This document shows positions 7,458 to 49,875 of a DNA stretch of 64,000 nucleotides, in pieces. This stretch comes from a bacterium (lineage in GTDB: Bacteria; Patescibacteriota; Minisyncoccia; Phycocordibacterales; UBA9973), in assembly GCA_037143195.1 (NCBI GenBank), contig JBAWZD010000002.1:72785-136784 (forward strand), given 5' to 3'. Every line of letters starts with the position of its first letter. The first letter of the stretch is position 1. Under the pieces are notes generated by a model. It was not told the origin of the DNA. It worked only from the letters and a program-made list of their open reading frames with translations, and searched no databases. The translations under genes and the position numbers were made by a program.

Positions 7458-7560
7458 ATCAAAATACGTTTTGAGAAGGCCTCGCGCAGGCCCTTCGGGG
7501 GCCGAGCGGCGATGCTCGCGAGCACGCGAGACAGCGTTGCCTTTCAAAACGTATTTTGAT
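7458..7560. repeat. 63-bp-family dispersed repeat, diverged copy, inside 17-bp perfect inverted repeat
   Basis: ATCAAAATACGTTTTGA arms. The loop carries GAAGGCC...GCTCGCGAGCACGCGAGAC...GTTGCC, related to the 63-bp core. Confidence 0.6.
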
Positions 7561-7577
7561 ACTGGCCACTCTGTTTT

Positions 7578-8621
7578 TTATTGCTGAGCTTCGAGGAACT
7601 TAAAGATTTCTTCGTTGAGCATCATGTGCGCAACATACATGCGAGCACGGAGTGGGTCTGCGTCCTGATATGTTTGGATGAGACGCTTGGTTTCGTTTTC
7701 AACTTCTTCGGCTTTTGGTTCGAGTTTTTCTGCTTTTGCGATTTCCATCATGATGAGCTCGGTCTTTGCGCGCTTCTCAGCATCAGGAAGCAAATCTTTT
7801 TGAATATCAGCTTCTGACTTTTGTACGTGTTTGAGATATTCTTCAAACGGGATTCCAGCTTGAGCAATATCTGCCTTGAGACGATTGATGAGATTTTCTG
7901 CTTCGTTCTCAATGAGTACTTGAGGAATTTCGATTGTTGTTGCTTCAGCTATCTTTTCAAGTGTTGCGATACGGCGCTTCTCAAGATCGCGCGCGATTTT
8001 TTCTGCCTTGATATTTTCGCGGAATTTTGTTTTGAATGCATCCACGTTTTCGAACTCTCCGAGCAATTTTACATATTCGTCATCGAGTGTTGCATCGAAT
8101 TCAAGTTTCTCAAATTCAGCATGATCATGTTTCTCACCTGACTGATGAATCTCATTGTGCTTGCGAGCCTTTTTGAGTTCTTTTATTGCCTCGTCGAGCT
8201 CTGCGTCAGTGACAGTTACATCGGCAACAGTTTTGTTTTCAACTGCTGCGATCTTTTTGTATTCAGGAAGTTTGACTTCTGGAAGAGTCGCAACGACTGC
8301 AGTAAATTCGAGGTCGTTGTCTTTTGCGAGTTTGGTGAGCGTGATTGATGGGCGACCAATCGCGTCAATCTTCTCGTCCTTCAAAATCTTTGGGAAATGT
8401 TCATTGATCGCAATATCTGCCATCTCCTCAAGGAGCATCATTGGGTTGAGCTCTTTTTCAAGAATGTTTGCTGGTACCTTGCCTTTGCGGAATCCTGGGA
8501 TTTCGACGTGTTCGCCGGCGCGACTGAGTGCTTTTGCACGGTAGCTTTCAAATACTTCGGCTGGGATTACGACTTCAATCTGGGTTTCGCTCTTTGGTAA
8601 TTTTTTGATTGTATTTTTCAT
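7578..8621 (-). CDS. tig: trigger factor (short form)
   Basis: The N-terminal ribosome-binding domain carries the GFRKGKVP signature. At 347 aa the protein is short, which suggests loss of the PPIase domain. Confidence 0.8.
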   Translation of the reverse strand: MKNTIKKLPKSETQIEVVIPAEVFESYRAKALSRAGEHVEIPGFRKGKVPANILEKELNPMMLLEEMADIAINEHFPKILKDEKIDAIGRPSITLTKLAKDNDLEFTAVVATLPEVKLPEYKKIAAVENKTVADVTVTDAELDEAIKELKKARKHNEIHQSGEKHDHAEFEKLEFDATLDDEYVKLLGEFENVDAFKTKFRENIKAEKIARDLEKRRIATLEKIAEATTIEIPQVLIENEAENLINRLKADIAQAGIPFEEYLKHVQKSEADIQKDLLPDAEKRAKTELIMMEIAKAEKLEPKAEEVENETKRLIQTYQDADPLRARMYVAHMMLNEEIFKFLEAQQ

Positions 8622-8656
8622 GGTTTTCGCATACTAACACAAAAATCAAGCAGGAA

Positions 8657-8771
8657 CAAAAGCACACGCGCCTCCTTTGAAAAGGCAACCCGTTCCGCGT
8701 GCTCGCGGCCGGGCTTCTCGGCGCCAAGCGCCTGCGAAAGGCCTTCTTCAAAGGAGGCGCGTGTGCTTTTG
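8657..8771. repeat. 63-bp-family dispersed repeat copy (8684-8746) inside 25-bp perfect inverted repeat
   Basis: GGCAACCCGTTCCGCGTGCTCGCGGCCGGGCTTCTCGGCGCCAAGCGCCTGCGAAAGGCCTTC is flanked by CAAAAGCACACGCGCCTCCTTTGAA and its reverse complement. Confidence 0.7.
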
Positions 8772-8789
8772 TTTGTTGCTCGTTCGAGT

Positions 8790-8996
8790 TTAGTTTGTGA
8801 GAGACCCTGCGGCGTTGGCGTCGAGGTTGAGGCCGGCTTCGGCGGCGGTTTTGGCTTGGTGATTTTGGATGAGGTCAGTTTGTTTGCGCACGTTTTGGTA
8901 GAGGAAGTAGCCTGCGACAATCAAGATGGCGAGGATGATGACAATACCGGCGAGGGCACCACCGTTTTCTTTTGTTTTGCGCGCGCTTCCTTTCAT
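8790..8996 (-). CDS. small single-pass membrane protein
   Basis: The ATG at 8996 gives MKGSARKTKENGGALAGIVIILAILIVAGYFLY.... One TM helix is present. The longer ORF in the track has no support upstream of this ATG. Confidence 0.4.
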   Translation of the reverse strand: MKGSARKTKENGGALAGIVIILAILIVAGYFLYQNVRKQTDLIQNHQAKTAAEAGLNLDANAAGSLTN

Positions 8997-9038
8997 ATAC
9001 TCTGAGTATATACAATTTTCCGAAAAATGAAAGAAAAA

Positions 9039-9072
9039 ATCACGCACCAATTCGGTGCGTGATTTTTTCGTA
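9039..9072 (-). terminator. rho-independent terminator after ppa
   Basis: AAAAAATCACGCACCAATTCGGTGCGTGATTTTTT. Confidence 0.55.
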
Positions 9073-9082
9073 ATCCCCTCTG

Positions 9083-9667
9083 TTATTTTACTTTCGGAGC
9101 GTAGTTTTTTGCATACACATCGACACATTCTTTGATGACCTTCATTGCTTCTTCTGGTCCATAGAATGTTTCGACGACACCAGTACCTGGTTTCTTGAGT
9201 GCTTTGTAATTCTCCCAGTAGTATTGTGTCTGCTTTTTGAAATATTCTCCGAGCTGATCGACATGCGTGATGTGATCTTGGCGCTTGTCTTCACTGATGA
9301 CGGCGATGATTTTGTCATCAACTTCACCTCCATCGATATATTTCATGATACCGATGACGCGGAGTTCAACGACTGATCCTGGCACGAGTGGCTCAGTGAC
9401 ATTCACGACTTCAATATCGAGTGGGTCGTTGTCCTGATCCCATGTCATTGGAATCGCTCCGTAAGTGAATGGATATGCCATTGAAGAATATCCAACACGA
9501 TCGAGTTTGAGCTGACCACTCTCGGTGATGAGTTCGTACTTGTTGATAGATCCAGCAGAGACTTCGACGATTGCATTGATGATGCACTTTGATTCATCGA
9601 CGACGGCTGGGAGTACGTGCAACAAATTGAGCATGTACTTTGATGGTTCGTGATTGATGTTTGCCAT
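9083..9667 (-). CDS. ppa: inorganic pyrophosphatase (family I)
   Basis: Carries the family I pyrophosphatase fold motifs, e.g. DPLDIEVV...GSVVELRVIGIMKYIDGGEVDDKIIAV. Confidence 0.85.
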   Translation of the reverse strand: MANINHEPSKYMLNLLHVLPAVVDESKCIINAIVEVSAGSINKYELITESGQLKLDRVGYSSMAYPFTYGAIPMTWDQDNDPLDIEVVNVTEPLVPGSVVELRVIGIMKYIDGGEVDDKIIAVISEDKRQDHITHVDQLGEYFKKQTQYYWENYKALKKPGTGVVETFYGPEEAMKVIKECVDVYAKNYAPKVK

Positions 9668-9684
9668 ATGCTTCTATTATATGA

Positions 9685-10860
9685 TTAAGCAGCGTCTTCG
9701 GCTACTGTCTCTTTTTTCTCAACAACTGTTTCACCGTCTGATGATCCTACTGTTTCACCAGCGACTCCTTTGATATCAATTCTCCATCCTGTGAGTTTTG
9801 CGGCGAGACGAACGTTCTGTCCGCCCTTTCCAATCGCGAGTGAGAGCTGATCATCTGCGACTTCAACACTTGCAGTGTGCTCAGTGTCATTGATGACGAC
9901 TGAGAGTGCTTTTGCTGGAGAAAGTGCAGCTGAAACGAATTTTGCTGGGTCAGCATTCCATTCGATGATGTCAATCTTCTCGTTGCCGAGCTCACTCATA
10001 ACAGTTGTTACACGGATACCCTTCTGTCCAACACATGAACCGACTGGATCAACATGTTCGTCAGCTGAGAATACCGCAATTTTAGTACGAGCACCTGCTT
10101 CACGAGCAGTTGATTTGATTTCGACGGTACCACTTGCAACTTCCGGAGCTTCTTGGGCGAAGAGTGCAGTGATAAATTTTGGATGGGTGCGTGATATTTT
10201 GAGAGATACGCCACGAGGAGTTTCTTCGACAGCATAGAGATATGCGCGGATACGCTCACCACGACGGTAGTACTCGTTTGGAATCTGTTCTTCGCGAGGA
10301 AGAATAGCGGTAACGCGACCAATATCGACGAAGACATTGCCGCGCTCCATCTTTTGGATCATGCCACTGACGATATCACCTTCGTGACCGCCAAATTCAC
10401 TCATGATTGCGCCGTGTTCTGCCTCACGGATACGCTGAATGATGACCTGTTTTGCCGTTTGCGCTGCAATACGGCCGTAATCTTCTTTGGCTTCAAGGGG
10501 GAAATTGATTTCCTCACCGACAACTGCGTTTGATTTCATGATGCGAGCATCCTCAAGGAGAATGTGGTGTTCAGGATTGAAGCGAACACGCTCATCGCCT
10601 TCTGGAAGGTCTGGAGTATCAACACCATCTTCTACGAAGTAGACAGTTGATTCATCTGCAACGATTTTTACCTGAAAGAAGTCGGTGCGACCAGTTTCGA
10701 GGTCAAAATGCGCGCGGACGATCTGTCCACGTTTGCCGTAGTCTTTTTTGTAAGCGGCGGCGAGTGCCTGTTCGATGGCATCGATGATCTTCTCGCGGGG
10801 GACTCGGCGCTCTGTTTCGAGCTGATCGAGGGCTATTTTGAGTGCTTTGAGGTCTAACAT
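9685..10860 (-). CDS. nusA: transcription termination/antitermination factor NusA
   Basis: NusA N-terminal domain followed by S1 and KH regions (GARTKIAVFSADEHVDPVGSCVGQKGIRV). Confidence 0.9.
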   Translation of the reverse strand: MLDLKALKIALDQLETERRVPREKIIDAIEQALAAAYKKDYGKRGQIVRAHFDLETGRTDFFQVKIVADESTVYFVEDGVDTPDLPEGDERVRFNPEHHILLEDARIMKSNAVVGEEINFPLEAKEDYGRIAAQTAKQVIIQRIREAEHGAIMSEFGGHEGDIVSGMIQKMERGNVFVDIGRVTAILPREEQIPNEYYRRGERIRAYLYAVEETPRGVSLKISRTHPKFITALFAQEAPEVASGTVEIKSTAREAGARTKIAVFSADEHVDPVGSCVGQKGIRVTTVMSELGNEKIDIIEWNADPAKFVSAALSPAKALSVVINDTEHTASVEVADDQLSLAIGKGGQNVRLAAKLTGWRIDIKGVAGETVGSSDGETVVEKKETVAEDAA

Positions 10861-11059
10861 ATATGATTTTAGCCTTATTTTATAAGGCTCGTTATTAAAT
10901 TTTCTAATTTTTGATACGGCGCGCAGGTACTCCCTTTAAAAAAAAGAGCCGGCCCGATGGCCGACATACCGAAACACCTTATCTAGTAACATATATATAT
11001 TACTCTGGCTGGTAAAAAGTGTCAATACGGGATGTGCGGCGACATAATATGTGTTTGTC

Positions 11060-11147
11060 GCCGCCGAGGACTGACCGAGCGAGCGGTTTCGGAGTATAGA
11101 GCGTAAACTACAAGCGCATTATTACGCGAGCAAGATTCCGCAGGCAA
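11060..11147 (-). repeat. ~90-bp-family dispersed repeat copy (core TTGCTCGCGTAA...GAAACCGCTCGCTCGGTCAGTCCTCG)
   Basis: Reverse-orientation copy in the nusA upstream intergenic region, flanked by short GTGCGGCG/CGCCGCAC inverted repeats. Confidence 0.65.
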
Positions 11148-11228
11148 GATAAATACACTATTATGGCGCCGCACTTACGTGTTGTTGGTTTTCCACAGTA
11201 GAGTGATTGATATCCACTGTCGCGATAA

Positions 11229-11561
11229 GTGATACAATATATGTCTATGGATGCTCCAACACAGAAAGCAGTTCGTTCGTCGCGTTCAAATGTTACCGCG
11301 TTCCTTTTTATTATCATTGGGCTTGCCATTGTCGCGAGTGTGATTGTGTTTTTGAAGAAGACCACAAACAACAATCAGGCACAGAAAGCTGACCTGCATG
11401 CAGGTATTATCAATCAGATCGCGACAGACTCGACCCAAGGAGACTTGAGTACCAAAGAGAAGACCGATATTTTGAAACAAGTGAGCAAAAATACTCCCGT
11501 GACGAGTGCTCAAGACCGAGCGGCGATACTCGATTCTATTAGTAAGGCTTCAACACAATAA
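11229..11561 (+). CDS. small membrane-anchored protein
   Basis: 110 aa with a single N-terminal TM helix (AFLFIIIGLAIVASVIVFL). It lies directly upstream of the GYAW-repeat protein. Confidence 0.4.
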   Translation: MIQYMSMDAPTQKAVRSSRSNVTAFLFIIIGLAIVASVIVFLKKTTNNNQAQKADLHAGIINQIATDSTQGDLSTKEKTDILKQVSKNTPVTSAQDRAAILDSISKASTQ

Positions 11562-11566
11562 GCACA

Positions 11567-13153
11567 ATGACAACTATCACACAGTGGATCAAACAAAAAA
11601 GTGTCATGCTCGGAGTGGTAGCTTCGATAGCAATCGTCACGCTTTTTTCATACGCCACACTCAATCCTCGTTTGACGCATGCCGCAGCGGGCATGGGTGG
11701 AGACCTTCATGGATACGCATGGAGCTCAACTGTGGGTTGGATGAGCATGAACTGCGCTGAGGGCAGTGCTACTGGAGGCACGGTATGTTCAACTTCAAAC
11801 TACAAAGTCACACTCGACCCTGCGACGCAGATTTTTTCGGGATACGCATGGAGTTCAAACGTTGGATGGGTTTCATTTAATTCGAGCGATGTTTCTTTTT
11901 GTGGCTCGCAAGCAGCACTTTCTGCGGGGAGAATGACTGGCTGGGCTCGTGTGCTGAGCGGTGTATATCCGAATGGAGCAGATGGCTGTATCAGTTTTGG
12001 TTCTGCAACGACGAGCACCTATGGCGTGAATGTAGATTCAGTCGCCGGGACATTTTCTGGCTATGCATGGGGCTCAATTACGCTCGGCTGGCTTGATTTT
12101 AGTCGCGTTACGATGACGCCGACCACTGCGACTGTTGATTTGAAAGTCTTTGACCCATCGACAGGTGTTGCGACAAACGGACCACTCACGGTAGCGCTTG
12201 CTTCAGGTACAGGCACTGCAAAACTTTCGTGGACATCAAGTGGTGTTTCGTCATGTACGGCGAGTGTGACTCCTGCGACGACATCATCTGCGACTGACTG
12301 GCATGGATCAGTCGCAACGACGAGTACTGGCGTTACTGTTGGTTACTCACTCGCATCATCGGCGACTTACACATATACAATTACTTGTACGCCATCAGGA
12401 GGGACACTTTCACCCGTGTCTGATTCAGTACAAGTTGTTGTTTCAGGAAGTAGTACCGGAACATATGTTGATCTCAAAGTGCAGGGAGTGAGTGGCCCAA
12501 CAGACGGTCCAATCACTATGCCAGATTGGACTGGTGGACCAGAAGTATTGCTCTGGACTTCATCGTCTGATGTCACTTCATGTGTGGCTGATTCAAGCCC
12601 TCGTGTTTCAGATTGGAATAGTACAACTGCAATTGGAACATCAAGTGTTTCAACCGCGATTACACTTCCATCAAATATGACGACAGGAATGCTTACTTAC
12701 GTGTATAAGATCGTTTGTTCTGGTAGTACAATTGCAACTGACACTGTACTTATCAATGTGCCACCTGCAGACGTGCCAACATGTGCAGTTCGCCCAGGGC
12801 CATACACAATTGGAACAGGAACACATGTACATTTTGAAGTTCCAATCACGATTGCATGGACACCAAGCTTCAATCCGACAGATTTTTCTCTCGACTTGAG
12901 TAGTGCCTCTGGACTTGCTGTTTCGCTTGTTGATACTGCTACAGGCGCACCGGCAACATCAATCACGGCACGAGGTGGACGTCTCGGACTTTGGATTGAT
13001 GGCGCGATGCCGACTTCAACGAAGACCATCGTGGTGAATGCAAGTCCATCGAGTGCAGGTACGGGAGTGACTTCATGTGATTCCGCAAGCATTGTGATTA
13101 ATCCATCGGGCAGCGGAGGTGTTCGCGGTACGTTCCCATGGCAGGAAAAATAA
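11567..13153 (+). CDS. secreted/anchored surface protein with GYAW-x3-GW repeats and Ig-like Thr/Ser-rich region
   Basis: N-terminal signal-anchor. Three repeats of HGYAWSSTVGWMSMN / SGYAWSSNVGWVSFN / SGYAWGSITLGWLDF occur. The rest is low-complexity and beta-rich. Confidence 0.6.
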   Translation: MTTITQWIKQKSVMLGVVASIAIVTLFSYATLNPRLTHAAAGMGGDLHGYAWSSTVGWMSMNCAEGSATGGTVCSTSNYKVTLDPATQIFSGYAWSSNVGWVSFNSSDVSFCGSQAALSAGRMTGWARVLSGVYPNGADGCISFGSATTSTYGVNVDSVAGTFSGYAWGSITLGWLDFSRVTMTPTTATVDLKVFDPSTGVATNGPLTVALASGTGTAKLSWTSSGVSSCTASVTPATTSSATDWHGSVATTSTGVTVGYSLASSATYTYTITCTPSGGTLSPVSDSVQVVVSGSSTGTYVDLKVQGVSGPTDGPITMPDWTGGPEVLLWTSSSDVTSCVADSSPRVSDWNSTTAIGTSSVSTAITLPSNMTTGMLTYVYKIVCSGSTIATDTVLINVPPADVPTCAVRPGPYTIGTGTHVHFEVPITIAWTPSFNPTDFSLDLSSASGLAVSLVDTATGAPATSITARGGRLGLWIDGAMPTSTKTIVVNASPSSAGTGVTSCDSASIVINPSGSGGVRGTFPWQEK

Positions 13154-22221: not shown

Positions 22222-22265
22222 GCGGACAAAATCAAAAACGCCCTAGAGGGCGTTTTTGATTTTGT
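22222..22265. terminator. bidirectional terminator between pgk and HIT gene (20-bp perfect IR)
   Basis: GCGGACAAAATCAAAAACGCCC-TAGAG-GGCGTTTTTGATTTTGTCCGC. It overlaps the HIT gene stop. Confidence 0.55.
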
Positions 22266-22656
22266 CCGCAATTTGTTTTGCGCCATCGTCTTCATATTTT
22301 GTGCCGTGCCAGAGTTCGTAGCCGTCACCTTCGTGACGAGGCATAACGTGTACGTGTGCATGAAAGACGACTTGTCCGGCAAACGTGCCGTTGTTCATCG
22401 CGATATTGAGATCGGGCGAGGGGATGCCTGTTTGGATGCCGTGAGCGACCTTCTTTACGGTGTCCATGACTTTGCTCCAGACATCGGCGGGTGCTTCAAA
22501 TACATTCGCGTAGTGCTCTTTGGGAATGACGAGTGTATGCCCCGGATTGACCGGCATGATGTCGAGGAAGGCGAGGGTGTCGGCGTCCTCGTATATTTTT
22601 TCACACGGGATTTCGCCCGCGACGATTTTGCAAAAGAGGCAGTTTGTGTCTTTCAT
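22243..22656 (-). CDS. HIT-family (histidine triad) hydrolase
   Basis: MKDTNCLFCKIVAGEIP...HAHVHVMPR carries the histidine triad. Only the C-terminal 137 aa of the 299-aa track ORF is HIT-like, so the gene is called from the internal ATG. Confidence 0.75.
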   Translation of the reverse strand: MKDTNCLFCKIVAGEIPCEKIYEDADTLAFLDIMPVNPGHTLVIPKEHYANVFEAPADVWSKVMDTVKKVAHGIQTGIPSPDLNIAMNNGTFAGQVVFHAHVHVMPRHEGDGYELWHGTKYEDDGAKQIADKIKNAL

Positions 22657-25231: not shown

Positions 25232-26697
25232 ATGGATATCTGGCTTCCGGTATTGTAGGCTTTGCCACCGGAATTATTTTTGCTTCGCTTGCTCATATGA
25301 CCGCCCCCGCGACTATAGTCGCGGGGGCGGTCGGCGTTTGTCTCCTCGTCCTCGCCACAATCATTCGCAAAGCGAGATCCTACACACTGGTCGCGGGTCT
25401 CTTCATCTGCGCATTTGTCCTCGGCATGTATCGTGCCGAAATTGCAAAACCGAATACGAAAGATTTTGAAAACAACATCGGCGAGAGCGTCACTGTCGAA
25501 GGTCTGATCGCAGATGAACCATCAGTAAAATCATATGGAGCAGGTTTTACCCTCGCGACGCCTGACCTCAGTTTTTCAGTTCGTACCAAAAAGAATACGC
25601 ATCTCGCATACGGTGACAAAGTCCTCGTGTATGGCACACTCGCACTCCCTGAGAATTTCATGACTGATCAAGGCACGGAATTCGATTACATTTCATATCT
25701 CTACAAAAGTAATGTTGTGTATCAAATCAAAAACGCGAACGCGACCGTACTCGAACACAATCATGGCAATTGGATAGTCGCACACTTGATCCCCGTAAAG
25801 AACGCAATCGTAAACTGTTTCCATCGCATCTTGCCCGCGTCACAAGCCGATCTGCTCGCCGGTCTCAATCTCGGCGTCAAAGCAAACATTGATCCGCAAT
25901 TCCGCGACGACCTCGTCACGACTGGCACGATTCATATGATTGCGCTTTCTGGATACAACGTGACCGTCGTTGCAAACGCACTCCAAAGTTTTTTTATCGA
26001 TATTCTCGGACTATCCATGCGTGTCGCGTCAGCAAGTGGCGCACTGTGTATCGTGCTGTTTGTCGTCATGACAGGGATGCAATCATCGGCGGTGCGAGCG
26101 GGGATCATGGCGCTCATCGGACTTTTTGCGCGCACCAAAGGTCGCACCTATGATGCATTTCGTGCGCTTGTCATCGCCGGATTTTTGATGATACTCTACG
26201 ATCCAAAATATCTGGTTTACGATGTGTCGTTTCAACTTTCATACCTCGCTACGCTCGGTATTCTGTTCGTCACCCCAGTGCTCGAGCGAACATTCGCACG
26301 CGTGCCCAAAAAAGTCGCGTACATTATTCTGCTCCGCGAACTCATGTCCGTCACCCTTGGCGCACAGACAGGAGTCTTGCCCTTCATTCTTTACAAAATG
26401 GGCACACTCTCGCTCATTGCACTCCCCGCAAATGTCGCGATATTACCCGCGGTCCCGCTTGCCATGGGATTCGGCGCGCTCGCGGGACTCATCGGCGCAT
26501 TCAGTCTCGGACTCGCATACCCCGCCTCACTTATCACACACTATCTCCTCAGCTATATCACCGGAGCCGTGCAATTCCTCGCGCGCGTCCCGTTCGCGTC
26601 AGTCGTCATAAAACACTTTCCATTATGGCTGTGTATCTGTATGTATTTGTGTCTAATGTTTTTTTTGTATAAAAAATGGCACAGTGAAAAAGTGTAG
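25204..26697 (+). CDS. comEC: DNA internalization channel ComEC/Rec2 (membrane competence domain only, no fused MBL domain)
   Basis: DUF4131-like N-terminal region (FDYISYLYKSNVVYQI) and a competence domain (GTIHMIALSGYNVTVV). Multiple TM helices are present. The 5' end overlaps rnhA, so the true start may be an internal Met. Confidence 0.75.
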   Translation: MEHTRSQTIDGYLASGIVGFATGIIFASLAHMTAPATIVAGAVGVCLLVLATIIRKARSYTLVAGLFICAFVLGMYRAEIAKPNTKDFENNIGESVTVEGLIADEPSVKSYGAGFTLATPDLSFSVRTKKNTHLAYGDKVLVYGTLALPENFMTDQGTEFDYISYLYKSNVVYQIKNANATVLEHNHGNWIVAHLIPVKNAIVNCFHRILPASQADLLAGLNLGVKANIDPQFRDDLVTTGTIHMIALSGYNVTVVANALQSFFIDILGLSMRVASASGALCIVLFVVMTGMQSSAVRAGIMALIGLFARTKGRTYDAFRALVIAGFLMILYDPKYLVYDVSFQLSYLATLGILFVTPVLERTFARVPKKVAYIILLRELMSVTLGAQTGVLPFILYKMGTLSLIALPANVAILPAVPLAMGFGALAGLIGAFSLGLAYPASLITHYLLSYITGAVQFLARVPFASVVIKHFPLWLCICMYLCLMFFLYKKWHSEKV

Positions 26698-26704
26698 CAA
26701 AAAT

Positions 26705-26802
26705 AAAAACCTCTTTTGAAGAAGGCCTTTCGCAGGCGCTTGGCGCCGAGAAGCTCGCGCGCGAGCACGCGCGACGAGTTGCCTTTTCAAAAGAGGTTTT
26801 TA
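26705..26802. repeat. 63-bp-family dispersed repeat copy (26721-26783, reverse orientation) inside 16-bp inverted repeat
   Basis: The core is the exact reverse complement of the copy inside truB (63/63 by eye). Confidence 0.75.
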
Positions 26803-26814
26803 ATTTCGCCCAAA

Positions 26815-30603: not shown

Positions 30604-32718
30604 ATGCGCCCCTCACGTCTTTTCATTCTGATCGCGAGTGTTATCGGATTCCTCATTCCGGTGGCACTTTTTGCTTCCACGGGTGGCATTGATGCGACGA
30701 ATCACACCGCACGATTGTGTTCGAACGAGGATTGTTCCGCCTATTCAATCGTCAATTGGAAACCAACAAACGGTGGGGGAGTTTCAATTACCGATACAAC
30801 ACTTTCTGGATATATTTGGTCAAACAAACTCGGATGGATCAATCTCGCGCCAATAAATGGCGGAGTGCACAACACCTCGAGCGGTACAGTCTCGGGCGAT
30901 GCATGGGGCTCGACCGCGAGTTGGGTGAATTTTCGTCCAACACACGGCGGAGTCACGATCAATCCGTCGACGGGGGAATTTTCTGGCTATGCATGGGTTT
31001 CCGGTGGCGGCTGGATGCTGTTTGATTGTTCCAAAGCCGATGCTTGTGTGAAGACTGATTGGCGTCCAACTGTTGTGGTGACGACGCACACCACTCCACC
31101 TCCTCCGCTCATTTGTCTCGACCGCACAGCGCTCAATTATGGAGGATCGCTTCCGTGTGTGTACCCGACACTGTGTACTGATACAACTGCGACCAATTAT
31201 GGTTCCGTTGGAATGTGTACGTACGCATTATTGTGTCAGGATCGAACGGCAACAAATTTCGGCGGGTCATTACCGTGTACGTATACGCTGACGTGTACTG
31301 ACACAACGGCGACGAATTACGGTTCTACCGGTAGCTGCACCTACGCGCTATTGTGTCGAGACCGCACCGCTACCAACTATGGCGGAGCATTGCCATGTTC
31401 CTATGCGACGACTTGTACCGATACTGCAGCGACCAACTACGGCGCGACGGGTGCGTGTACGTATGCGCCACCACCACTATGTCTTGATACAACTGCGACG
31501 AACTACCTCGGTTCATTTCCATGTGTATACGCAAGCACAATCTGTACTGATCCATCAGCTAGCAATTTCCGACAATCTGGCACCTGTGTGTATCCAACAA
31601 TAGTTCACACTGAAACGACCGGAGGGGGAGGCGGTTGTCCAATTTCTACCGCGACTGACATTGTCGGAGAAGTTATCGGCCAAGTAAAAAATAGTTACTG
31701 TAATACGACGCAGACTGTCGGCACGACATACAAAAAAGTAAAAGCGATTCTTGGTACGAGCACTGCCACAAAAGCTGAAGCTGTTGCTGCGACCGTGGGA
31801 GTTGTTGCAAGTGCTGCAACATCAATTTTCACCGCGCTCTTTTTGAATCCACTTTCATTCTCCGAAATCTTCCTGATCCCTGCTCGCTTGTGGTCGCTTC
31901 TCCTCGCTGCGCTCGGACTCAAAAAACGTCACCAGCCATGGGGCACGGTCTATGACAGTATCACCAAACAACCACTTGATCCTGCATATGTGACACTCCG
32001 TACTATTGAAGGAGAAGACGTCGTTTCCAATTTGACCGACCTCGATGGACGATTCGGATTCGTGGTGCCAAAGCCAGGTGTGTATTCAATCTTCGCGCAG
32101 AAGACGAACTATCTTTTCCCATCACAGCAACTCGTCGGACGTGACCACGACGAGCTCTACCGAGATTTGTATTTCGGCGAACACTTTACTGTTGAGAATG
32201 CGGGAGATGTCGTCATCAAAAATATTCCGATGGATCCAATGCATTTCGATTGGAATGAATTCGCGAAGAATCAACAGAACCTCATGAAGTTCTATTCGAA
32301 GCGTGACAAGATTTTGCGTCGCGTGTCCGACGTCCTTTTTGGCGCAGGATTTGCAATTGCGATTCTTGCGACAGTATTTGCCCCAAAACTATACAATATT
32401 ATTGTCCTCGTTTTGTATGTCGGACTCTTCTTCCTCCGTCAATATGGCAAACATTCACGACCATACGGAGATATCACCGATGCGAAAACCGGTTTGCCAC
32501 TTTCATTTGCGCTCATTCGCATCGCGTCGCTTTCAACTGGCGTTGAGGTCATGCACCGCATTGCCGATGCGCAAGGCCGATATTACGCACTTCTCCCAAA
32601 TGCCGACTACAAAGTCCGCATCGATCGCAAACTGCCCGACGGCACCTATCAAACCGCAGTCACTGACCTACCCGCAACCGTCAAGAAAGGCTATCTCTCG
32701 AGTAAATTCAAGGTGTAG
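30604..32718 (+). CDS. large surface/membrane protein with GYAW repeats, eight 20-aa two-Cys tandem repeats, and a C-terminal TM domain
   Basis: N-terminal anchor. Three repeats of LSGYIWSNKLGWINL / VSGDAWGSTASWVNF / FSGYAWVSGGGWMLF. Eight copies of xC(T/Q/R)DxTATNYGxxxxC(T/V)Yxx. A Gly5 linker and about four C-terminal TM helices. The stop codon lies inside a 42-bp perfect inverted repeat. Confidence 0.65.
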   Translation: MRPSRLFILIASVIGFLIPVALFASTGGIDATNHTARLCSNEDCSAYSIVNWKPTNGGGVSITDTTLSGYIWSNKLGWINLAPINGGVHNTSSGTVSGDAWGSTASWVNFRPTHGGVTINPSTGEFSGYAWVSGGGWMLFDCSKADACVKTDWRPTVVVTTHTTPPPPLICLDRTALNYGGSLPCVYPTLCTDTTATNYGSVGMCTYALLCQDRTATNFGGSLPCTYTLTCTDTTATNYGSTGSCTYALLCRDRTATNYGGALPCSYATTCTDTAATNYGATGACTYAPPPLCLDTTATNYLGSFPCVYASTICTDPSASNFRQSGTCVYPTIVHTETTGGGGGCPISTATDIVGEVIGQVKNSYCNTTQTVGTTYKKVKAILGTSTATKAEAVAATVGVVASAATSIFTALFLNPLSFSEIFLIPARLWSLLLAALGLKKRHQPWGTVYDSITKQPLDPAYVTLRTIEGEDVVSNLTDLDGRFGFVVPKPGVYSIFAQKTNYLFPSQQLVGRDHDELYRDLYFGEHFTVENAGDVVIKNIPMDPMHFDWNEFAKNQQNLMKFYSKRDKILRRVSDVLFGAGFAIAILATVFAPKLYNIIVLVLYVGLFFLRQYGKHSRPYGDITDAKTGLPLSFALIRIASLSTGVEVMHRIADAQGRYYALLPNADYKVRIDRKLPDGTYQTAVTDLPATVKKGYLSSKFKV

Positions 32719-32856
32719 CACAGAAAAGTGCAAAAAGGTGCTCTCGGAAGCACCAGCGTAAAATCCTGCTGGATTTTCGCCTCACGCTCGCGCCGTCGCG
32801 CTCCGCGAGTGCTTCCGAGAGCACCTTTTTGCACTTTTCTGTGCTACACCTTGCTT
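32715..32856. repeat. 42-bp perfect inverted repeat with ~58-nt structured loop, overlapping stop codon of surface-protein gene
   Basis: The arm GGTGTAGCACAGAAAAGTGCAAAAAGGTGCTCTCGGAAGCAC pairs with its exact reverse complement. The loop contains a CGCTCGCG motif and an inner small hairpin. Confidence 0.7.
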
Positions 32857-32957
32857 TTTTTCGAGACTCTATGTATAGTACTGACCTAAGCGAGTGCTCC
32901 TAGATATTGTTCGAGTTGCTTCTGGGTGTTACCTTGGCTTTTTATTTTAATTACTAC

Positions 32958-43095: not shown

Positions 43096-43357
43096 TTGAC
43101 TTTTTCACCCCAGAGTACTAAATTAAAAATATGTTCGTCCGAAATACAATTATTAGTACCCTCATTATTATCCGCTCGGCGCGGGGGTCTGCTTTTATTG
43201 TATAAATTTCTTGATTCAATAAAACAAAAGCCCCCGCGTACGCGGGGGCTTTTGTTTTATGAGTTTTGAGCCACAGCTCTCGAGAACCCCAAGATTCTTT
43301 AGAGCTGTGGTCCAAAATGAATGACCACGTATTTTCTTCATTAAAAAACCAAAATTT

Positions 43358-44189: not shown

Positions 44190-44254
44190 AATATGCAAAA
44201 GAAAAAGCGTGCATTGTGAGTACGCTTTTTCAATTTGAATAATTTCGTCGCTCG

Positions 44255-45289: not shown

Positions 45290-45302
45290 TATCTAAACTA
45301 CT

Positions 45303-45734
45303 ATGAAAGCTTTTCTCAAAAACTATCGCCAAGCTCCTCGCAAAGTCCGCCTCGTAGCGGGTCTCATTAAGGGCAAGCCAGTCGCTGTGGCTGAACTCGA
45401 ACTCAAGCACCTTGCAAAGCGTGCTGCTCTTCCTATGGAAAAGCTCCTTGCTTCAGCTGTTGCAAACGCAAAGGTAGGCGGCGCCGATGTTGCAAACCTC
45501 TTCGTCAAAGATGTCACTGTAGACAAGGGCATCGTTATGAAGCGCCACATGCCACGAGCTTTCGGACGCGCTTCAGCAATCCACAAACATTCAAGCCATG
45601 TTACTCTTACTCTCGCTGAGACCGGTGTCAAAGCCATCAAAGAAGAGAAGAAGACCAAGGCCGTGAAAGCTGAGCCAAAGGCGAAAAAGGCTCCAGTAAA
45701 GAAAGCTACTAAGGCTAAGTCAGTAACGAAATAA
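45303..45734 (+). CDS. rplV: 50S ribosomal protein L22
   Basis: L22 core plus a Lys/Ala-rich C-terminal extension. Confidence 0.85.
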   Translation: MKAFLKNYRQAPRKVRLVAGLIKGKPVAVAELELKHLAKRAALPMEKLLASAVANAKVGGADVANLFVKDVTVDKGIVMKRHMPRAFGRASAIHKHSSHVTLTLAETGVKAIKEEKKTKAVKAEPKAKKAPVKKATKAKSVTK

Positions 45735-45737
45735 TAT

Positions 45738-46430
45738 ATGTCAAAAGTTGTCCATCCATACGCACACCGACTTGTCATCCTCCGAGATTGGAAATCTCGC
45801 TGGTTTGCAGGACCAAAGAAGTACCGCGAATACCTCAAAGGAGATGTTCTTGTTCGTGAATACCTCGAGAAGCGCATGCGCGGTCTCTACGTCTCATCAA
45901 TCGAGATGGAGCGCTCACCAAAGTCTACTCGTTTCATCATCCGCACATCACGCCCAGGTATGGTTATCGGTCGCTCAGGTGAGGGATCAACCAAACTCAA
46001 ACAGGAAATCGTCACTTTCATGAAAAAGAAGGGTATTCCAGTTCCAGAAGAACTCAAGCTCGACATCATCGAAGTTATGAACCCAGATGCTGACGCACAC
46101 ATTGTTGCGTATGGTATCGCTGAAGCTCTTGAAAAGCGTCTTCCATTCCGCCGTGTTATGAAGCAGGCTGTAGAGCGTGTTATCGCTACTCGCGGAGTTG
46201 AAGGAGTCAAGATCGTCATCTCAGGACGTCTCGGTGGTGCAGAAATCGCCCGCATCGAAGAGCAGAAGCGTGGATCAATTCCACTTCAGACTTTCCGTGC
46301 AGACGTCGACTACACTCGCGAGCGTGCACACATGACCTATGGAGACATCGGTATCAAGGTGTGGATTTACCGTGGTGAGGTCTTCGACATCAAGGAGGAC
46401 GCAAAAAATTCGACCGTAGCGAAGAAATAA
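45738..46430 (+). CDS. rpsC: 30S ribosomal protein S3
   Basis: KH and S3_C domains. Confidence 0.9.
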   Translation: MSKVVHPYAHRLVILRDWKSRWFAGPKKYREYLKGDVLVREYLEKRMRGLYVSSIEMERSPKSTRFIIRTSRPGMVIGRSGEGSTKLKQEIVTFMKKKGIPVPEELKLDIIEVMNPDADAHIVAYGIAEALEKRLPFRRVMKQAVERVIATRGVEGVKIVISGRLGGAEIARIEEQKRGSIPLQTFRADVDYTRERAHMTYGDIGIKVWIYRGEVFDIKEDAKNSTVAKK

Positions 46431-46450
46431 TCTAATTTAACGATACATTT

Positions 46451-46870
46451 ATGCTTTTCCCTAAGAAAATAAAATTCAGAAAGTGGCAGACCGGACGCAA
46501 GGACATGAGTGCCTTGAAGCCTGACACACGCGGTACGACAATCTCGTACGGATCTTTCGGTCTCAAAGCCGAGACATCTGGACGTATTCGTTCAAACCAG
46601 CTCGAGGCTGCTCGTAAGGCAATGGCACGTCAGATGACAAAGACAGGCAAAGCATGGATTCGTATCTTCCCAGACCGACCATATACTGCAAAGCCACCAG
46701 AAGTGGGAATGGGTAAGGGTAAAGGAGATCCACAGGGATTCTGTATGGAAATTCGCCCAGGCCGTGTCATTTTTGAAATCGATGGTATGGATGAAGCAGG
46801 TGCTCGTGAGGCTCTCCGCAAGGCGGGAACCAAACTCCCAGTCAAAACTCGCGTCGTCTCTCGTGCATAA
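46451..46870 (+). CDS. rplP: 50S ribosomal protein L16
   Basis: Canonical L16 sequence. Confidence 0.9.
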   Translation: MLFPKKIKFRKWQTGRKDMSALKPDTRGTTISYGSFGLKAETSGRIRSNQLEAARKAMARQMTKTGKAWIRIFPDRPYTAKPPEVGMGKGKGDPQGFCMEIRPGRVIFEIDGMDEAGAREALRKAGTKLPVKTRVVSRA

Positions 46871-46878
46871 GTATTTTT

Positions 46879-47139
46879 ATGAAAACAAAAACACCAGAAA
46901 AAAGTAATACAAAGAAGACCGTACTCGCGGGAACTGTCGTCAAAGCAGCAATGCAAAAGACAGTCACTGTAGCGGTCACACGCTTCGAGAAGCACCCAAA
47001 GTATCTCAAGTATCAGACACTTACAAAGAAGTACAAGGTACATGATGAGAACGGAGTTGCAAAAGTGGGGGACAAGGTTGAGATCGTCGAGACAAAACCT
47101 ATCTCAAAAGACAAGCGTTTCACTCTCGTCACTAAGTAA
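46879..47139 (+). CDS. rpsQ: 30S ribosomal protein S17
   Basis: Canonical S17 sequence. It follows L16 directly with no rpmC (L29) between them. Confidence 0.85.
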   Translation: MKTKTPEKSNTKKTVLAGTVVKAAMQKTVTVAVTRFEKHPKYLKYQTLTKKYKVHDENGVAKVGDKVEIVETKPISKDKRFTLVTK

Positions 47140-47162
47140 TAGTTTTAGGTAACACACATTAT

Positions 47163-47540
47163 ATGATTCAGCCACAAACAATAGTCAAAATAGCAGACAA
47201 CGCCGGAGGAAAAGTCGGCATGGTCTTCAAGGTGCTTGGTTCATCCAAGCGTCGCTACGCACGCATCGGCGATGTCGTTGTGATTTCGGTCAAAGTGGCT
47301 GAACCTCGCAAAGGTGTCAAGAAGAAGGGTGTCCACCATGCAGTTGTTGTCCGTCAGCGCGAAGCTATGCGCCGCAAAGATGGTTCATACATCAGTTTTG
47401 ATGACAACGCAGTTGTGCTCATTGGTTCTGGCAAACAGCGCTTTGAGCCAATCGCAGGACGCATTTTCGGACCAATCCCCCGCGAGCTCGGTGAGCGTGG
47501 ATACCAGAAGATTATTTCTCTTGCCCCTGAGGTTATCTAA
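47163..47540 (+). CDS. rplN: 50S ribosomal protein L14
   Basis: Canonical L14 sequence. Confidence 0.9.
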   Translation: MIQPQTIVKIADNAGGKVGMVFKVLGSSKRRYARIGDVVVISVKVAEPRKGVKKKGVHHAVVVRQREAMRRKDGSYISFDDNAVVLIGSGKQRFEPIAGRIFGPIPRELGERGYQKIISLAPEVI

Positions 47541-47562
47541 CGATTAATCTACCTTCAATTCT

Positions 47563-47868
47563 ATGAATATCAAAAAAGGAGACAACGTAATAGTCACAAA
47601 AGGCAAAGATGCTGGTAAGAAAGGCAAAGTCCTCGCAGTATTCCCAAAGGAGAACAAAGTTCTCGTTGAGGGTCTCAACATGAAGAAGCGTCACCAGAAG
47701 AGTACTACTCGTGGAGGCAAAGGCCAGATGGTAGACATTGCTCACCCAGTAAATCGCTCAAACGTCGCAATCCTCGATCCAAAGTCGGGCAAACCAACTC
47801 GCTTGGGTGCCAAGGACGTTAATGGAAAGAAGATTCGCGTCGCTAAGAAGAGCGGACAGGAAGTATAA
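47563..47868 (+). CDS. rplX: 50S ribosomal protein L24
   Basis: KOW motif (KGDNVIVTKGKDAGKKGKV). Confidence 0.9.
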   Translation: MNIKKGDNVIVTKGKDAGKKGKVLAVFPKENKVLVEGLNMKKRHQKSTTRGGKGQMVDIAHPVNRSNVAILDPKSGKPTRLGAKDVNGKKIRVAKKSGQEV

Positions 47869-47869
47869 T

Positions 47870-48430
47870 ATGACTGTAAAAGAAAAAGCACAAAAATCAT
47901 ACGAAGTTTTGAAGCCAAAGTTTGGCTACAAGAACGTCATGGGAGCTCCAAAGCTTTTGAAGGTTGTTGTTGGTTCCGGAACTGGAAACGCTATGAAGCG
48001 CAACAAGAATCACAACGATCTCGTTGCTGACCGTTTGACCAAAATCACCGGACAGAAAACAGCACTCCGTGGCGCAAAGCAATCAATCGCAACATTCAAG
48101 ATTCGTCAGGGCGACCCAGTTGGTGTTTCTGTGACACTCCGCGGTCCTCGCATGTACGGATTCCTCGAAAAGTTTTTCAATATCGCCGTGCCTCGCACGA
48201 AGGACTTCCGCGGATTCAATCCTTCAGCTGTTGACTCAATCGGTAACCTCACTCTCGGTATCAAGGAACACACAATCTTTCCTGAAACTGCAGATGAAGA
48301 TATCAAAGACGTCTTCGGTCTCTCAGTCACACTCGTCTCGAGTGCAAAGACAAAGGCAGAAGGTCTCGCATTCTTCGAACTCATCGGTGTTCCATTCAAG
48401 AAAGAAGAGGACGTAAAGAAAAAGAAGTAA
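47870..48430 (+). CDS. rplE: 50S ribosomal protein L5
   Basis: The internal ATG was chosen. Canonical L5 sequence. A terminator follows at about 48431-48466. Confidence 0.85.
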   Translation: MTVKEKAQKSYEVLKPKFGYKNVMGAPKLLKVVVGSGTGNAMKRNKNHNDLVADRLTKITGQKTALRGAKQSIATFKIRQGDPVGVSVTLRGPRMYGFLEKFFNIAVPRTKDFRGFNPSAVDSIGNLTLGIKEHTIFPETADEDIKDVFGLSVTLVSSAKTKAEGLAFFELIGVPFKKEEDVKKKK

Positions 48431-48466
48431 TAAAAAACCCGCGAGTGAAAGCTCGCGGTTTTTTTA
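48431..48466 (+). terminator. rho-independent terminator after rplE
   Basis: AAAAAACCCGCGAGTGAAAGCTCGCGGTTTTTTTATT. Confidence 0.6.
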
Positions 48467-48493
48467 TTGCCGTACCTGTGCTATTCTTCGCAT

Positions 48494-49072
48494 ATGCAAA
48501 AGCGCAACATCATCACCATCTGTGGCATGCTTGGTTCGGGCAAATCGACCGCTGCCAAGCGTGTAGCTACCGCACTCGGGTATCCGCACTACTCGGCAGG
48601 GGATTTCATGCGCGCGATGGCGAGCGAACGCGGACTGACGATCATTGAACTCAATTTGCTTGCGGAGAATGACCCTGCCGTTGACCGTGAGATTGATGCC
48701 AAGCAAAAGGCTTTTATGGATACCAACAACAATTTCGTGATTGATTCACGTATTGGATGGTTCTTCGCACAGGACTCATTCAAAGTATTTTTGAACCTCG
48801 ATTTGGATACGGCGAGTGCTCGCGTGTTTGGTGATATTCAAGCCAAGAAATCTGAACGCAAAGAGGAAATGTCTGAGACACTTGAGGCTGTGAAGACACG
48901 ACTCTCTGAACGACTCGCGAGTGAGAAAGAACGCTACAACAAATATTATGCGATTGAAAACTATCAAGACCCGAGTCATTTTGATTTGGTGATTGATACC
49001 AAAACGAACGATATCCCAACGGTTGAGCGAATGATTCTCGACGCATATACGGCGTGGCAAGCGAAGGTATAA
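48494..49072 (+). CDS. cmk: cytidylate kinase-like P-loop NMP kinase
   Basis: ITICGMLGSGKST P-loop, a Cmk-like layout, and a Lys-rich C-terminus. Confidence 0.55.
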   Translation: MQKRNIITICGMLGSGKSTAAKRVATALGYPHYSAGDFMRAMASERGLTIIELNLLAENDPAVDREIDAKQKAFMDTNNNFVIDSRIGWFFAQDSFKVFLNLDLDTASARVFGDIQAKKSERKEEMSETLEAVKTRLSERLASEKERYNKYYAIENYQDPSHFDLVIDTKTNDIPTVERMILDAYTAWQAKV

Positions 49073-49875
49073 AAAACGTATATCGGGTATACAAAGAGTG
49101 GGGAGAGACCCCGCTTGTTTGTTTGGAACGACTCCGTGCGAGAGAAGGAATAGATGCGAATGTGCCAATGACGTATGCTGGCCGACTTGATCCGGCCGCA
49201 GAAGGTGAACTTATCATCCTTGTGGGTGATGAATGCAAAAACAAGGATGCGTATAGCGGGCTCTCAAAAACATACGTTGCTGAAATTCTATTTGGTGTAT
49301 CAACTGACACGTATGATTTACTTGGTCTCCCAAAATTAAGTGAAGCACTCAGCAAATCTTCTTTCAAAAAGGCAACTCGTCGCGCGTGCTCGCGCGCGAG
49401 CTTCTCGGCGCCAAGCGCCTGCGAAAGGCCTTCTTTGAAAGAAGATTTGCTGAGTGCTTACCTTGATTCTCGAATTGGCAAACAAATGCAGATGTATCCA
49501 GCATATTCGTCAAAGACGGTCGGTGGAGTGCAGTTACATGCACACGCGCGGGCGGGGAAGGACGTTGATTTGCCTATACATGAGGTGGAACTCATTGCTT
49601 ACGCCGACCTCACGGTCGGCTTGCGTACTCGAGCCGAAGTAATTGATCGAGTCCGCGATCTCACGAGTATTGTCAAAGGTGATTTTCGTCAGACCGAAAT
49701 TCTTGAATCGTGGACGAGTCTTGTAACTGAATTGCCCGAGGAACTACTTGCCGTGAAAGTACACCTTACTGTTTCAAGCGGATTTTATATACGCCAATTT
49801 GCTCATGACATCGGGGAAGTTTTTGGTGCTGACACTTGTTTGTATTCGCTCGTGCGAAATCACATTGAGCAGTAG
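49054..49875 (+). CDS. truB: TruB-family pseudouridine synthase carrying an in-frame 63-bp repeat insertion
   Basis: YAGRLDPAAEGELIILVGD is the catalytic Asp motif. KTYVAEILFGVSTDTYD and MYPAYSSK are also present. The GTG start overlaps the cmk stop. A 63-bp dispersed-repeat core at 49371-49433 is inserted in-frame. Confidence 0.7.
   Translation: MASEGIKNVYRVYKEWGETPLVCLERLRAREGIDANVPMTYAGRLDPAAEGELIILVGDECKNKDAYSGLSKTYVAEILFGVSTDTYDLLGLPKLSEALSKSSFKKATRRACSRASFSAPSACERPSLKEDLLSAYLDSRIGKQMQMYPAYSSKTVGGVQLHAHARAGKDVDLPIHEVELIAYADLTVGLRTRAEVIDRVRDLTSIVKGDFRQTEILESWTSLVTELPEELLAVKVHLTVSSGFYIRQFAHDIGEVFGADTCLYSLVRNHIEQ
49351..49452. repeat. 63-bp-family dispersed repeat copy (49371-49433) flanked by 18-bp perfect inverted repeat, located in-frame inside truB
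   Basis: GGCAACTCGTCGCGCGTGCTCGCGCGCGAGCTTCTCGGCGCCAAGCGCCTGCGAAAGGCCTTC, with flanks AGCAAATCTTCTTTCAAA and TTTGAAAGAAGATTTGCT. Confidence 0.75.

Follow-up and report, generated by a model that had tools for sequence, protein, structure and literature searches.

Hairpin repeats with a conserved T-shaped core and mirrored arms in a small uncultured bacterial clade, including an in-frame copy in truB

The window analyzed here is a 64,000-nucleotide stretch of contig JBAWZD010000002.1 (positions 72,785 to 136,784) from an uncultured member of the Patescibacteriota. It carries four copies of a palindromic repeat that we call family 1, one of them lying in frame within truB, the gene for tRNA pseudouridine-55 synthase. 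Short non-coding hairpin repeats of this kind, ~110–140 bp long, form at least three families in a small uncultured clade, family 1 being one of them. Comparison of sister species showed that the hairpins are gained and lost as whole units, that their arms change in mirrored fashion, that they flip and exchange subtypes and flanks, and that the core block of subtypes A and B has stayed unchanged in four species. The explanation that we favor, with confidence a little better than even, is a hairpin repeat element that resembles Rickettsia palindromic elements (RPEs), repetitive extragenic palindromic (REP) sequences and the miniature inverted-repeat transposable elements known as MITEs, sits at terminator positions and evolves by hairpin-templated copying.

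Anatomy, distribution and genomic position of the family-1 elements

Each family-1 element consists of a 65-nt GC-rich T-shaped core, an inner inverted repeat (CTYTTTGAA...TTCAAARAG) and longer, copy-specific outer arms. The copy at 8655–8773 (+), of subtype B and hereafter the 8.7k copy, has perfect 27-nt arms (8655–8681 and 8747–8773) around a core at 8682–8746, with a small open reading frame (ORF)/ppa on one side and the tig promoter on the other. The 26.7k copy (26697–26809, −; subtype A) is located between the convergent genes comEC and sodA, and its arms (26697–26720 and 26786–26809, enclosing the core at 26721–26785) pair perfectly over 17 nt and at 92% over 24 nt. In the truB copy (49343–49459, +), a subtype A core (49369–49433) is held by perfect 26-nt arms (49343–49368 and 49434–49459) with an imperfect extension to 49334–49468 (35 nt at 91%); the palindrome of 117 nt corresponds to 39 codons. 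The fourth, 7.5k copy belongs to the diverged subtype C (7448–7572, −) and is bordered by the tig stop codon on one side and the clpP promoter on the other; it has perfect inner arms of 17 nt (7458–7474 and 7544–7560), a core at 7475–7543 and imperfect outer arms. An earlier note on this DNA, made from its letters alone, had put the flanking inverted arms at 16–25 bp; arms were present at every copy and proved longer, at 17–27 nt perfect, and the 18-bp perfect inverted repeat that it described in truB is actually 26 nt.

A 33-mer of the core has exactly three exact occurrences in the window (8714, 26721(−) and 49401), where shuffled sequences lead one to expect none. The truB core (49371–49433) and the reverse complement of 26721–26783 are identical at 63 of 63 positions, as had been claimed, and the identity spans 69 nt; the 8.7k core matches them at 57 of 63 (6 differences). 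A covariance model built from nine copies and searched over the 64-kb window returned exactly four copies, at 87–113 bits: 26708–26796 (−, 112.9 bits), 8671–8759 (+, 111.1 bits), 49358–49446 (+, 110.6 bits) and 7462–7554 (−, 87 bits), the last being the diverged copy that had been suspected at about 7475–7541. With three occurrences of the 33-mer against none expected and four covariance matches, the family is a genuine dispersed repeat and not low-complexity chance.

The GC content of the core was 71%, compared with 46% for the window. In the fold of every copy, a long stem ends in a three-way junction from which two small GC hairpins project (z −6.7 to −10). Hairpin 1 has TGCT as its loop and one bulged T, and hairpin 2 has the form GGCGC-CAA-GCGCC, lengthened by TTC/GAA. 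All six frames of the core are open, solely owing to its GC richness. The element is palindromic, non-autonomous and without coding capacity of its own, as first proposed.

To follow the copies across genomes, we ran a 29-mer scan with one genome per species, which matched a single metagenome-assembled genome (MAG), bin-1343 (CAITQP01), at five places, three of them syntenic with window copies. The window's TruB was 100% identical to the NCBI MAG protein WCG55_02860, and protein look-ups yielded two further sister lineages from ENA GROS21 metagenomes. Tig DNA identity was 89–90% in all six pairings, so that the lineages represent four roughly equidistant species: sp1 (the window), sp2 (bin-1343), sp3 (L167/L168, with truB contigs L008 and L009) and sp4 (L169–L171, with truB contigs L006 and L007). 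The same copies were found at syntenic sites in independent assemblies (the NCBI MAG, CAITQP01 and ENA GROS21 contigs). Remoter homologues carried the source labels Patescibacteria, Nomurabacteria or Pacebacteria, and relatives with 72–82% Tig identity had no family-1 copy beside tig.

Wider searches returned little. Metagenome and viral scans with the pattern GGCAACN{7,8}GCGTGCTCGCG gave 120 and 30 loci, all chance matches in GC-rich genomes with the rest of the core absent. Rfam gave nothing at gathering thresholds, and E-value searches of it gave generic long-hairpin miRNA models and noise only. BLAST of the element against phage and plasmid sequences found no match, and among 5.8 billion proteins the six-frame core peptides matched none but the TruB of the window itself. 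No transposase, HUH/Y1 or recombinase domain was present in the 31 window ORFs scanned, and no cognate autonomous insertion sequence with the same ends was present among these ORFs or the fetched loci.

Each intergenic copy lies either between a gene end and the next promoter (tig to clpP; small ORF/ppa to tig) or between the convergent genes comEC and sodA, which shows that the copies occupy the place normally held by bidirectional terminator hairpins. A promoter scan placed the predicted −35 element of clpP within the outer arm of the 7.5k copy, and the nusA promoter (TTGACA-17-TAATAT) directly abuts a family-2 hairpin. The 8.7k copy (AAAAGCACACGCGCCTCC...GGAGGCGCGTGTGCTTTTGTT) and the 26.7k copy (AAAAACCTC...GAGGTTTTT, with convergent genes on either side) both have, at the end of a gene, a GC stem with an A-run on one side and a T-run on the other, a form that the truB copy lacks. 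The loops of the family are 65–69 nt rather than the 3–8 nt of a terminator, and the full hairpins were not called by the scan. Such a long stem with a T-run after it probably works as a terminator or 3'-end hairpin.

Every palindrome in the window with a loop of 45–94 nt carries a core of family 1, 2 or 3. Plain bidirectional terminators in the window have loops of 0–11 nt, yet their perfect arms are long: those at 22222–22269, 43219–43260, 4948–4996 and 6751–6788 have arms of 17–23 nt that extend past the GC stem and the A/T runs. Such unusually long perfect terminators hint at a genome-wide process that perfects or lengthens hairpins. We also noted a perfect loopless 34-nt palindrome in comEC (25299–25332; GACCGCCCCCGCGACTA joined to TAGTCGCGGGGGCGGTC), which is read in frame as TAPATIVAGAV in the N-terminal membrane region, is 97% conserved in bin-1343 and resembles an arms-only hairpin in a coding region.

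Conservation of the core and turnover of the arms

At the 8.7k locus, the 87 nt made up of the core and inner arms had no variable column in the four species (0/87), compared with 44 of 173 columns outside (Fisher p=2.6e-9), that is, 25% of the neighboring columns. The 26.7k copy and its orthologue (L001) were identical over 85 nt within flanks of ~88% identity, and the one arm change was compensated. The subtype followed the locus across species (B at 8.7k, A at 26.7k), indicating that within-genome homogenization is not the cause of core identity; concerted evolution alone was thereby ruled out. The earlier note had read recency from the identical cores of truB and 26.7k, an argument that fails because orthologous cores are 100% identical at ~10% genome divergence. 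Subtypes A, B and B2 and the copy L002 differ by four compensated stem pairs and one change in the hairpin-1 bulge, and in our reading of the alignments no other unpaired position varies among them. Purifying selection would maintain the invariant T-shaped tip, which probably serves, as DNA or as RNA, for recognition by a protein.

These data also bear on a different explanation, to which we give tentative credit: that the core is a host-functional structured nucleic acid (a cruciform tip or an RNA three-way junction), a maintained cis-element and not selfish DNA. The invariant 87 nt and the 85 nt shared by the 26.7k orthologues agree with it, as do compensatory changes in six core pairs, the invariant loops and junctions of subtypes A and B, and the conserved gene-end-to-promoter positions. 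However, copies stand in both orientations relative to transcription and one lies inside a coding region, subtype C changes by ~7% between sp1 and sp4, presence and absence differ among sister species, and there is no Rfam match. The compensatory changes could, moreover, equally result from correction of DNA hairpins, given that the arms are devoid of G·T pairs.

The clearest view of gain and loss came from the tig-clpP spacer, where sp1 and sp4 have the 7.5k copy and sp2, sp3 and all remoter relatives lack it. In the empty site of sp2 (AAAAATA followed by GTTTCTATTGCTG), the whole palindrome including its ~33-nt arms is missing, and the site shows no trace of either arm. No direct repeat indicative of a target-site duplication was found at this single site, whose filled junctions read AAAAATA/TAGAGAG...CACTCT/GTTTT. 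Arms were also found to be common to different loci: an sp2 paralogue on another contig (L003) matched the 26.7k copy and L001 over 111 nt at 96%, arms included, and the truB arms of sp2 and sp3 (GCGCAGAAATTTCCAAAC(A/T)(T/C)TCTTTTGAA) resemble those of L003 (CGCACAAAATTAAAAACTCTCTTTTGAA). The absence of the whole hairpin, together with the arms that paralogues have in common, indicates that the arms belong to the element, and it is thus as a whole hairpin that the element is gained and lost. The view that arms are unique to each locus holds within the window and breaks down at L003 and at the sp2/sp3 truB arms. The TTTGAA/TTCAAA motif, proposed earlier as a junction at which the element targets or generates hairpins, is the inner inverted repeat of the element itself, and targeting is further contradicted by the armless empty site and the common arms of paralogues.

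We then compared arms between orthologues. The truB arms of sp1 and sp4 (L006) differ at five positions, and all five differences are compensated on the opposite arm; arm changes are likewise mirrored at the 8.7k locus (two G-to-A) and at the 26.7k locus (one C-to-A). Across the arms of 14 copies there were 318 Watson-Crick pairs, no G·T pair and 3 mismatches. Because compensation at the RNA level would need G·U intermediates, the complete lack of G·T pairs points to one arm being copied from the other with DNA as the template. There is an exception to the concerted pattern: the 8.7k copy of sp4 combines an sp3-like left arm with an sp2-like right arm at the cost of 3 mismatches, a composition that indicates a recombinant.

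Similar turnover was seen in the other two families. Family 2 has a core of ~95 nt (TTGTCTGCGRAATCTYGCTCGCGTAA...CCGCTCGCTCGGTCAGTCCTCGACTGC) in inverted, locus-specific arms and occurs in the window at 11027–11170, 58252–58401, 61630–61760 and 62764–62908, the first of these (−; imperfect arms of ~23–30 nt) being the copy that abuts the nusA promoter. Family 3 (32696–32866 and 54387–54503) has loops with a common AAAATYCTGYTGRATTTT and a GC-rich tail (..GCCGTCGC..TCCGCGAG), enclosed by perfect or near-perfect arms of 30–63 nt. Upstream of nusA, the core in sp1 is of family 2; the family-2 core of sp3 and sp4 is inverted relative to it and sits within unrelated 37-nt arms; sp2 has a plain terminator hairpin between the same flanks; and the remoter relative L160 has a family-3 core (7027–7161) in 39-nt arms, a related core being present in L161. 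The flip of family 2 at this intergenic site suggests that flipping is generic to these hairpins.

The main rival to the favored explanation, to which we assign about a quarter of our belief, is the model of the earlier note and holds that only the core is mobile, a unit with TTTGAA/TTCAAA ends that enters the tips of existing hairpins such as terminators or makes a stem by inverted duplication of the flank, so that the outer arms would be local sequence. The nusA-upstream site, whose occupant is, depending on the genome, a plain hairpin or a core of family 2 or 3, fits such a unit, and so does the truB loop, with family-1 cores in four species and, in a remoter relative (L165), a core of family-2 type. 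The arms resemble bidirectional terminators (A-run, GC stem, T-run), all large-loop palindromes of the window hold a repeated core, and the empty tig-clpP site of sp3 keeps CAGCGTGC, which is similar to the start of the left outer arm. In sp3 and sp4, moreover, the right arm at nusA includes the native −35 element (TTGACGATTTG) and the left arm its inverted copy; this duplication offers the best evidence that stems can grow by inverted flank copying, and through it the earlier idea of an element that generates hairpins survives in weakened form. A mobile core is harder to reconcile with the sp2 empty site, which has no trace of either arm, with nusA-site arms that are unrelated to the plain hairpin of sp2, and with paralogues at different loci that have arms of at least 24 nt in common (L003 compared with L001/26.7k). 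The lack of a target-site duplication (one site) and of a transposase (31 window ORFs) also counts against it. Both processes may operate.

The in-frame copy in truB

The truB gene (49054–49875, +) encodes a 273-aa TruB_N protein and hosts the element between the TDTYD strand region and the helix preceding YSSK. The insertion is at the same site, with the same right-hand junction, in all four sister species, and inspection of the reading frame showed that in five lineages the insert, whichever way it is oriented, leaves the ORF intact. The core is in the + orientation in sp1 and sp3 and in the − orientation in sp2 and sp4, in frame both ways. The insert peptide accordingly reads ...SF(K/E)KATR(R/S)ACSR...SAPSAC(E/A)RPS... 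in sp1/sp3 and ...SFEEGL(S/A)QALGAE...REHA(R/E)RVAFSKE..., the translation of the reverse-complemented core, in sp2/sp4. The peptides KATRRACSRASFSAPSACERPS and EEGLSQALGAEKLAREHARRVAFSK are predicted markers of translation of the insert. The predicted gene thus has the palindrome in frame within an ORF that distinguishes RPEs, and the original description of the copy as an in-frame insertion in a TruB loop, apparently translated with the protein, was sound.

To the two orientations were added two core subtypes (A in sp1 and sp2, B2 in sp3 and sp4) and two arm types, one common to sp1 and sp4 and a quite different one common to sp2 and sp3. Core type, arm type and orientation are therefore combined reticulately, which requires recombination or conversion. 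A variant from sp3 (L009) has 72 extra in-frame nt after the truB left arm and ahead of the core. They correspond to the left flank that the 8.7k locus has specifically in sp3, with the first part of tig among them, and the junction falls at a TTTTGA microhomology. This capture is direct evidence of ectopic exchange. The suggestion of gene conversion or recombination between copies is borne out both by the discordant core and arm types and by the 72-nt capture.

The age of the insertion could be judged from a more distant gene. L166 (P0010), with a TruB 57% identical, has no hairpin, and the same loop keeps a 28-nt CTTTTGAAGAAGGTCTCACACAGACGCT that matches the end of the inverted element at 23 of 28 positions, a score reached by 0 of 500 shuffles. 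The insertion in four species and this relic together indicate that the truB insertion predates the radiation of the four species by a wide margin. By the note's own condition for refutation, the copy is long established in the clade rather than newly arrived, which removes the recent mobility that had been proposed for it; the alignment of truB orthologues that the earlier note had put forward as a check placed the insertion at the same site in the sisters. In L165, with a TruB 55% identical, the same loop holds a perfect palindrome with 27-nt arms whose loop is a shortened family-2 core (L165 1765–1871). Two further ideas about this loop were set aside. The 'LEGLQ' segment (CTTGAAGGCCTTCAG) in P0017-type TruB was not significant as a collapsed relic, and the proposal that one truB arm is native and the other its inverted copy was left unconfirmed, since insert-free orthologues are too diverged and the sp2/sp3 arms resemble those of the intergenic paralogue.

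An AlphaFold2 model of TruB was made from a 17-sequence alignment (pLDDT, the predicted local distance difference test, 84.5; predicted TM-score, pTM, 0.80). Residues 101–130 averaged pLDDT values of 50, 45 and 54 in 10-residue blocks, and the insert was the sole low-confidence stretch apart from the N-terminus. A profile alignment to Thermotoga maritima TruB placed the insert between a strand ending at ~91 and a helix starting at ~95, a site that, to our understanding, is near neither the catalytic Asp motif nor the thumb loop, and the insert-bearing loop is variable in length among relatives. In the model, the insert would be a surface insertion compatible with the fold and apart from the conserved motifs, as in RPE-bearing proteins, and TruB would tolerate the extra 39 codons as a disordered surface excursion.

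The two orientations raise the question of whether the truB copy is a programmed intragenic inverton, with enzyme-driven phase variation between two TruB isoforms, which we consider improbable. Intragenic invertons, in which an invertible segment between inverted repeats in a coding region gives two versions of a protein, are documented in other bacteria (doi 10.1101/2023.03.11.532203), and the truB core is similarly bounded by perfect inverted repeats of 26–29 nt around a 65-nt segment that is found in both orientations with the frame kept. In contrast to invertons, the orientation differences were seen between species, the window ORFs scanned included no recombinase gene, and an intergenic family-2 copy flips too. 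Both insert peptides, in addition, are of low complexity and modeled as disordered.

The surroundings of truB are themselves divergent. A cmk-truB-ORF89 island (48300–50330 compared with L004, L006 and L008) had ~78–89% identity, compared with 93–99% for the flanking ribosomal-protein genes, in whose operon it is embedded. In bin-1343, an extra 212-aa ORF (L004 5022–5660) lies between rplE and cmk; the window is without it. The element was rejected as the cause of the raised cmk-truB divergence, since the whole 2-kb island differs.

Contig ends or runs of N fall exactly at hairpins in two sp3 truB fragments (P0242 and P0243) and at L161 1103–1112 and 3732–3741, and such assembly breaks give rise to truncated truB gene calls. 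That contigs of relatives break at the element, and that Ns lie in the family-3 loop of one scaffold, might suggest an assembly artifact or chance GC-rich similarity, but this explanation is already refuted by the exact 33-mer found three times with none expected, the covariance scores of 87–113 bits and the synteny across assemblies from three independent sources.

Proposed mechanism, comparison with known systems and meaning

Under the favored explanation, a hairpin repeat that evolves by hairpin-templated copying, the dynamics would be self-generated by hairpin geometry. Intrastrand pairing would allow either arm to be copied from its partner, through template switching or hairpin-directed repair; the loop would flip when the arms recombine, as in chloroplast hairpin inversions; and stalled synthesis that switches between copies would produce ectopic conversion and, rarely, new copies. 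The stem and T-run would provide a terminator or 3'-end hairpin, with the T-shaped tip read by some protein.

Several points weigh against this explanation. The sample comprises only ~14 copies from five genomes, and function is read from position and conservation only. The element is absent at some sites without obvious harm, and the conservation of the core is not universal, subtype C having 5 differences in 67 positions between sp1 and sp4. The copies have no fixed orientation relative to transcription, and a sequence-specific role as RNA is hard to square with that. The sp2/sp3 truB arms look nested, with an outer GCAGAAATTTC common to the L165 palindrome and an inner part common to L003; together with the copy of the −35 element at nusA, they would fit local insertion or growth of hairpins better than movement of a fixed unit.

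RPEs, REP sequences and MITEs are the right neighborhood for comparison, in line with the earlier note's likening of the repeat to REP and MITE insertions. RPEs are palindromic repeats of ~100–150 bp without a transposase of their own, either intergenic or inserted into housekeeping ORFs without breaking the frame; in the latter case they are read through, and the protein gains a peptide that its fold accommodates (PMC10969869). The truB copy is likewise an in-frame palindrome kept open, but only one ORF, truB, is hit in the window and fetched loci, whereas RPEs hit many. The elements here have a conserved center and variable ends, and we liken them to RPEs by description without claiming kinship in sequence. 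They also differ in that one insertion is found in both orientations with its core swapped between subtypes, and to our knowledge neither feature is part of the description of RPEs.

REP and the related mosaic elements (BIME), REPIN, and MITEs (SPRITE, ERIC, Correia) are small, multi-copy, non-autonomous extragenic palindromes at gene ends that form stable hairpins of RNA or DNA, often terminator-like (PMC10969869). With a size of ~110–140 bp, four copies per 64 kb (at least five in bin-1343) and no coding content, family 1 looks like a MITE; its inner repeat CTYTTTGAA/TTCAAARAG is conserved, yet its actual termini, the outer arms, vary among copies. In REPINs the arms are conserved, as recognition sites of the RAYT transposase, and the loop is variable, whereas here the core is invariant and the arms vary. 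Unlike REPINs and MITEs, family 1 was accompanied by no RAYT or transposase in the ORFs scanned and by no target-site duplication at the filled/empty site. Membership of the MITE/REPIN group therefore fails on target-site duplication, on the pattern of conservation and on the lack of a partner gene among those searched, and membership of the RPE family cannot be claimed. ERIC has a conserved central inverted repeat, and we know of no report of ERIC with locus-specific perfect stems.

Flipping has a parallel in chloroplast genomes, where, according to Kim & Lee 2005, as summarized in PMC12928735, loops of 5–50 bp in inverted repeats of 11–24 bp invert recurrently via a stem-loop. The 65-nt core between arms of 17–29 nt flips similarly; the chloroplast hairpins are unique and local, whereas these form a dispersed family with a conserved loop. 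We know of no chloroplast inversion inside an ORF with both frames open. The inverted terminal repeats of parvoviruses such as adeno-associated virus (AAV) have a long stem with two small GC-rich palindromic arms on a three-way junction and exist in flip and flop forms. The T shape and the two tip orientations recur here as a likeness in form only: the present elements are internal to chromosomal contigs among housekeeping genes, not the ends of a linear single-stranded DNA genome. No Rep-like domain was found in the window ORFs scanned, nor did the elements reveal a Rep-binding element or a terminal resolution site.

Two other kinds of repeats were observed in the window. Direct repeats 1745 nt apart are accounted for by tandem paralogous genes at 91–1788 and 1803–3533 (565 and 576 aa), which have treble-clef zinc-finger motifs at both ends. 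Diverged 60-nt periodic repeats with 63–74% identity, at 31154–31505 within an ORF at 30604–32718 (704 aa, CarboxypepD_reg domain), are probably repeated protein modules.

A more speculative proposal, which we regard as unlikely though less so than the inverton, is that the T-shaped tip is a module for a structure-specific enzyme (HUH/Rep-like, or a hairpin or cruciform nuclease) whose gene would lie elsewhere in these genomes and that nicks the stem and sets off hairpin-primed synthesis. Should a nickase that reads the tip exist, the hairpins would form an undescribed class of 'rolling-hairpin' chromosomal elements in bacteria, and one mechanism would cover flip and flop, self-templated stems that grow into the flanks, cassette exchange among the three families at shared sites and survival in an ORF.

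Taken together, three features of these hairpins are unusual: the reversed pattern of conservation, the in-frame reading in two directions and the self-templated stems. In-frame palindromic insertions like those of RPEs are not confined to Rickettsia and occur also in small-genome uncultured bacteria. In them, a single insertion can outlast speciation, be inverted and receive a replacement core without closing the host gene. The reversed conservation, in which an 87-nt center is fixed and the stems change yet remain paired, points to self-templating at the DNA level and to a reader of the tip. The hairpins also break metagenome assemblies and inflate protein divergence, TruB being 70% identical at ~90% genome DNA identity, and gene callers and phylogenomic pipelines for such lineages should allow for them.

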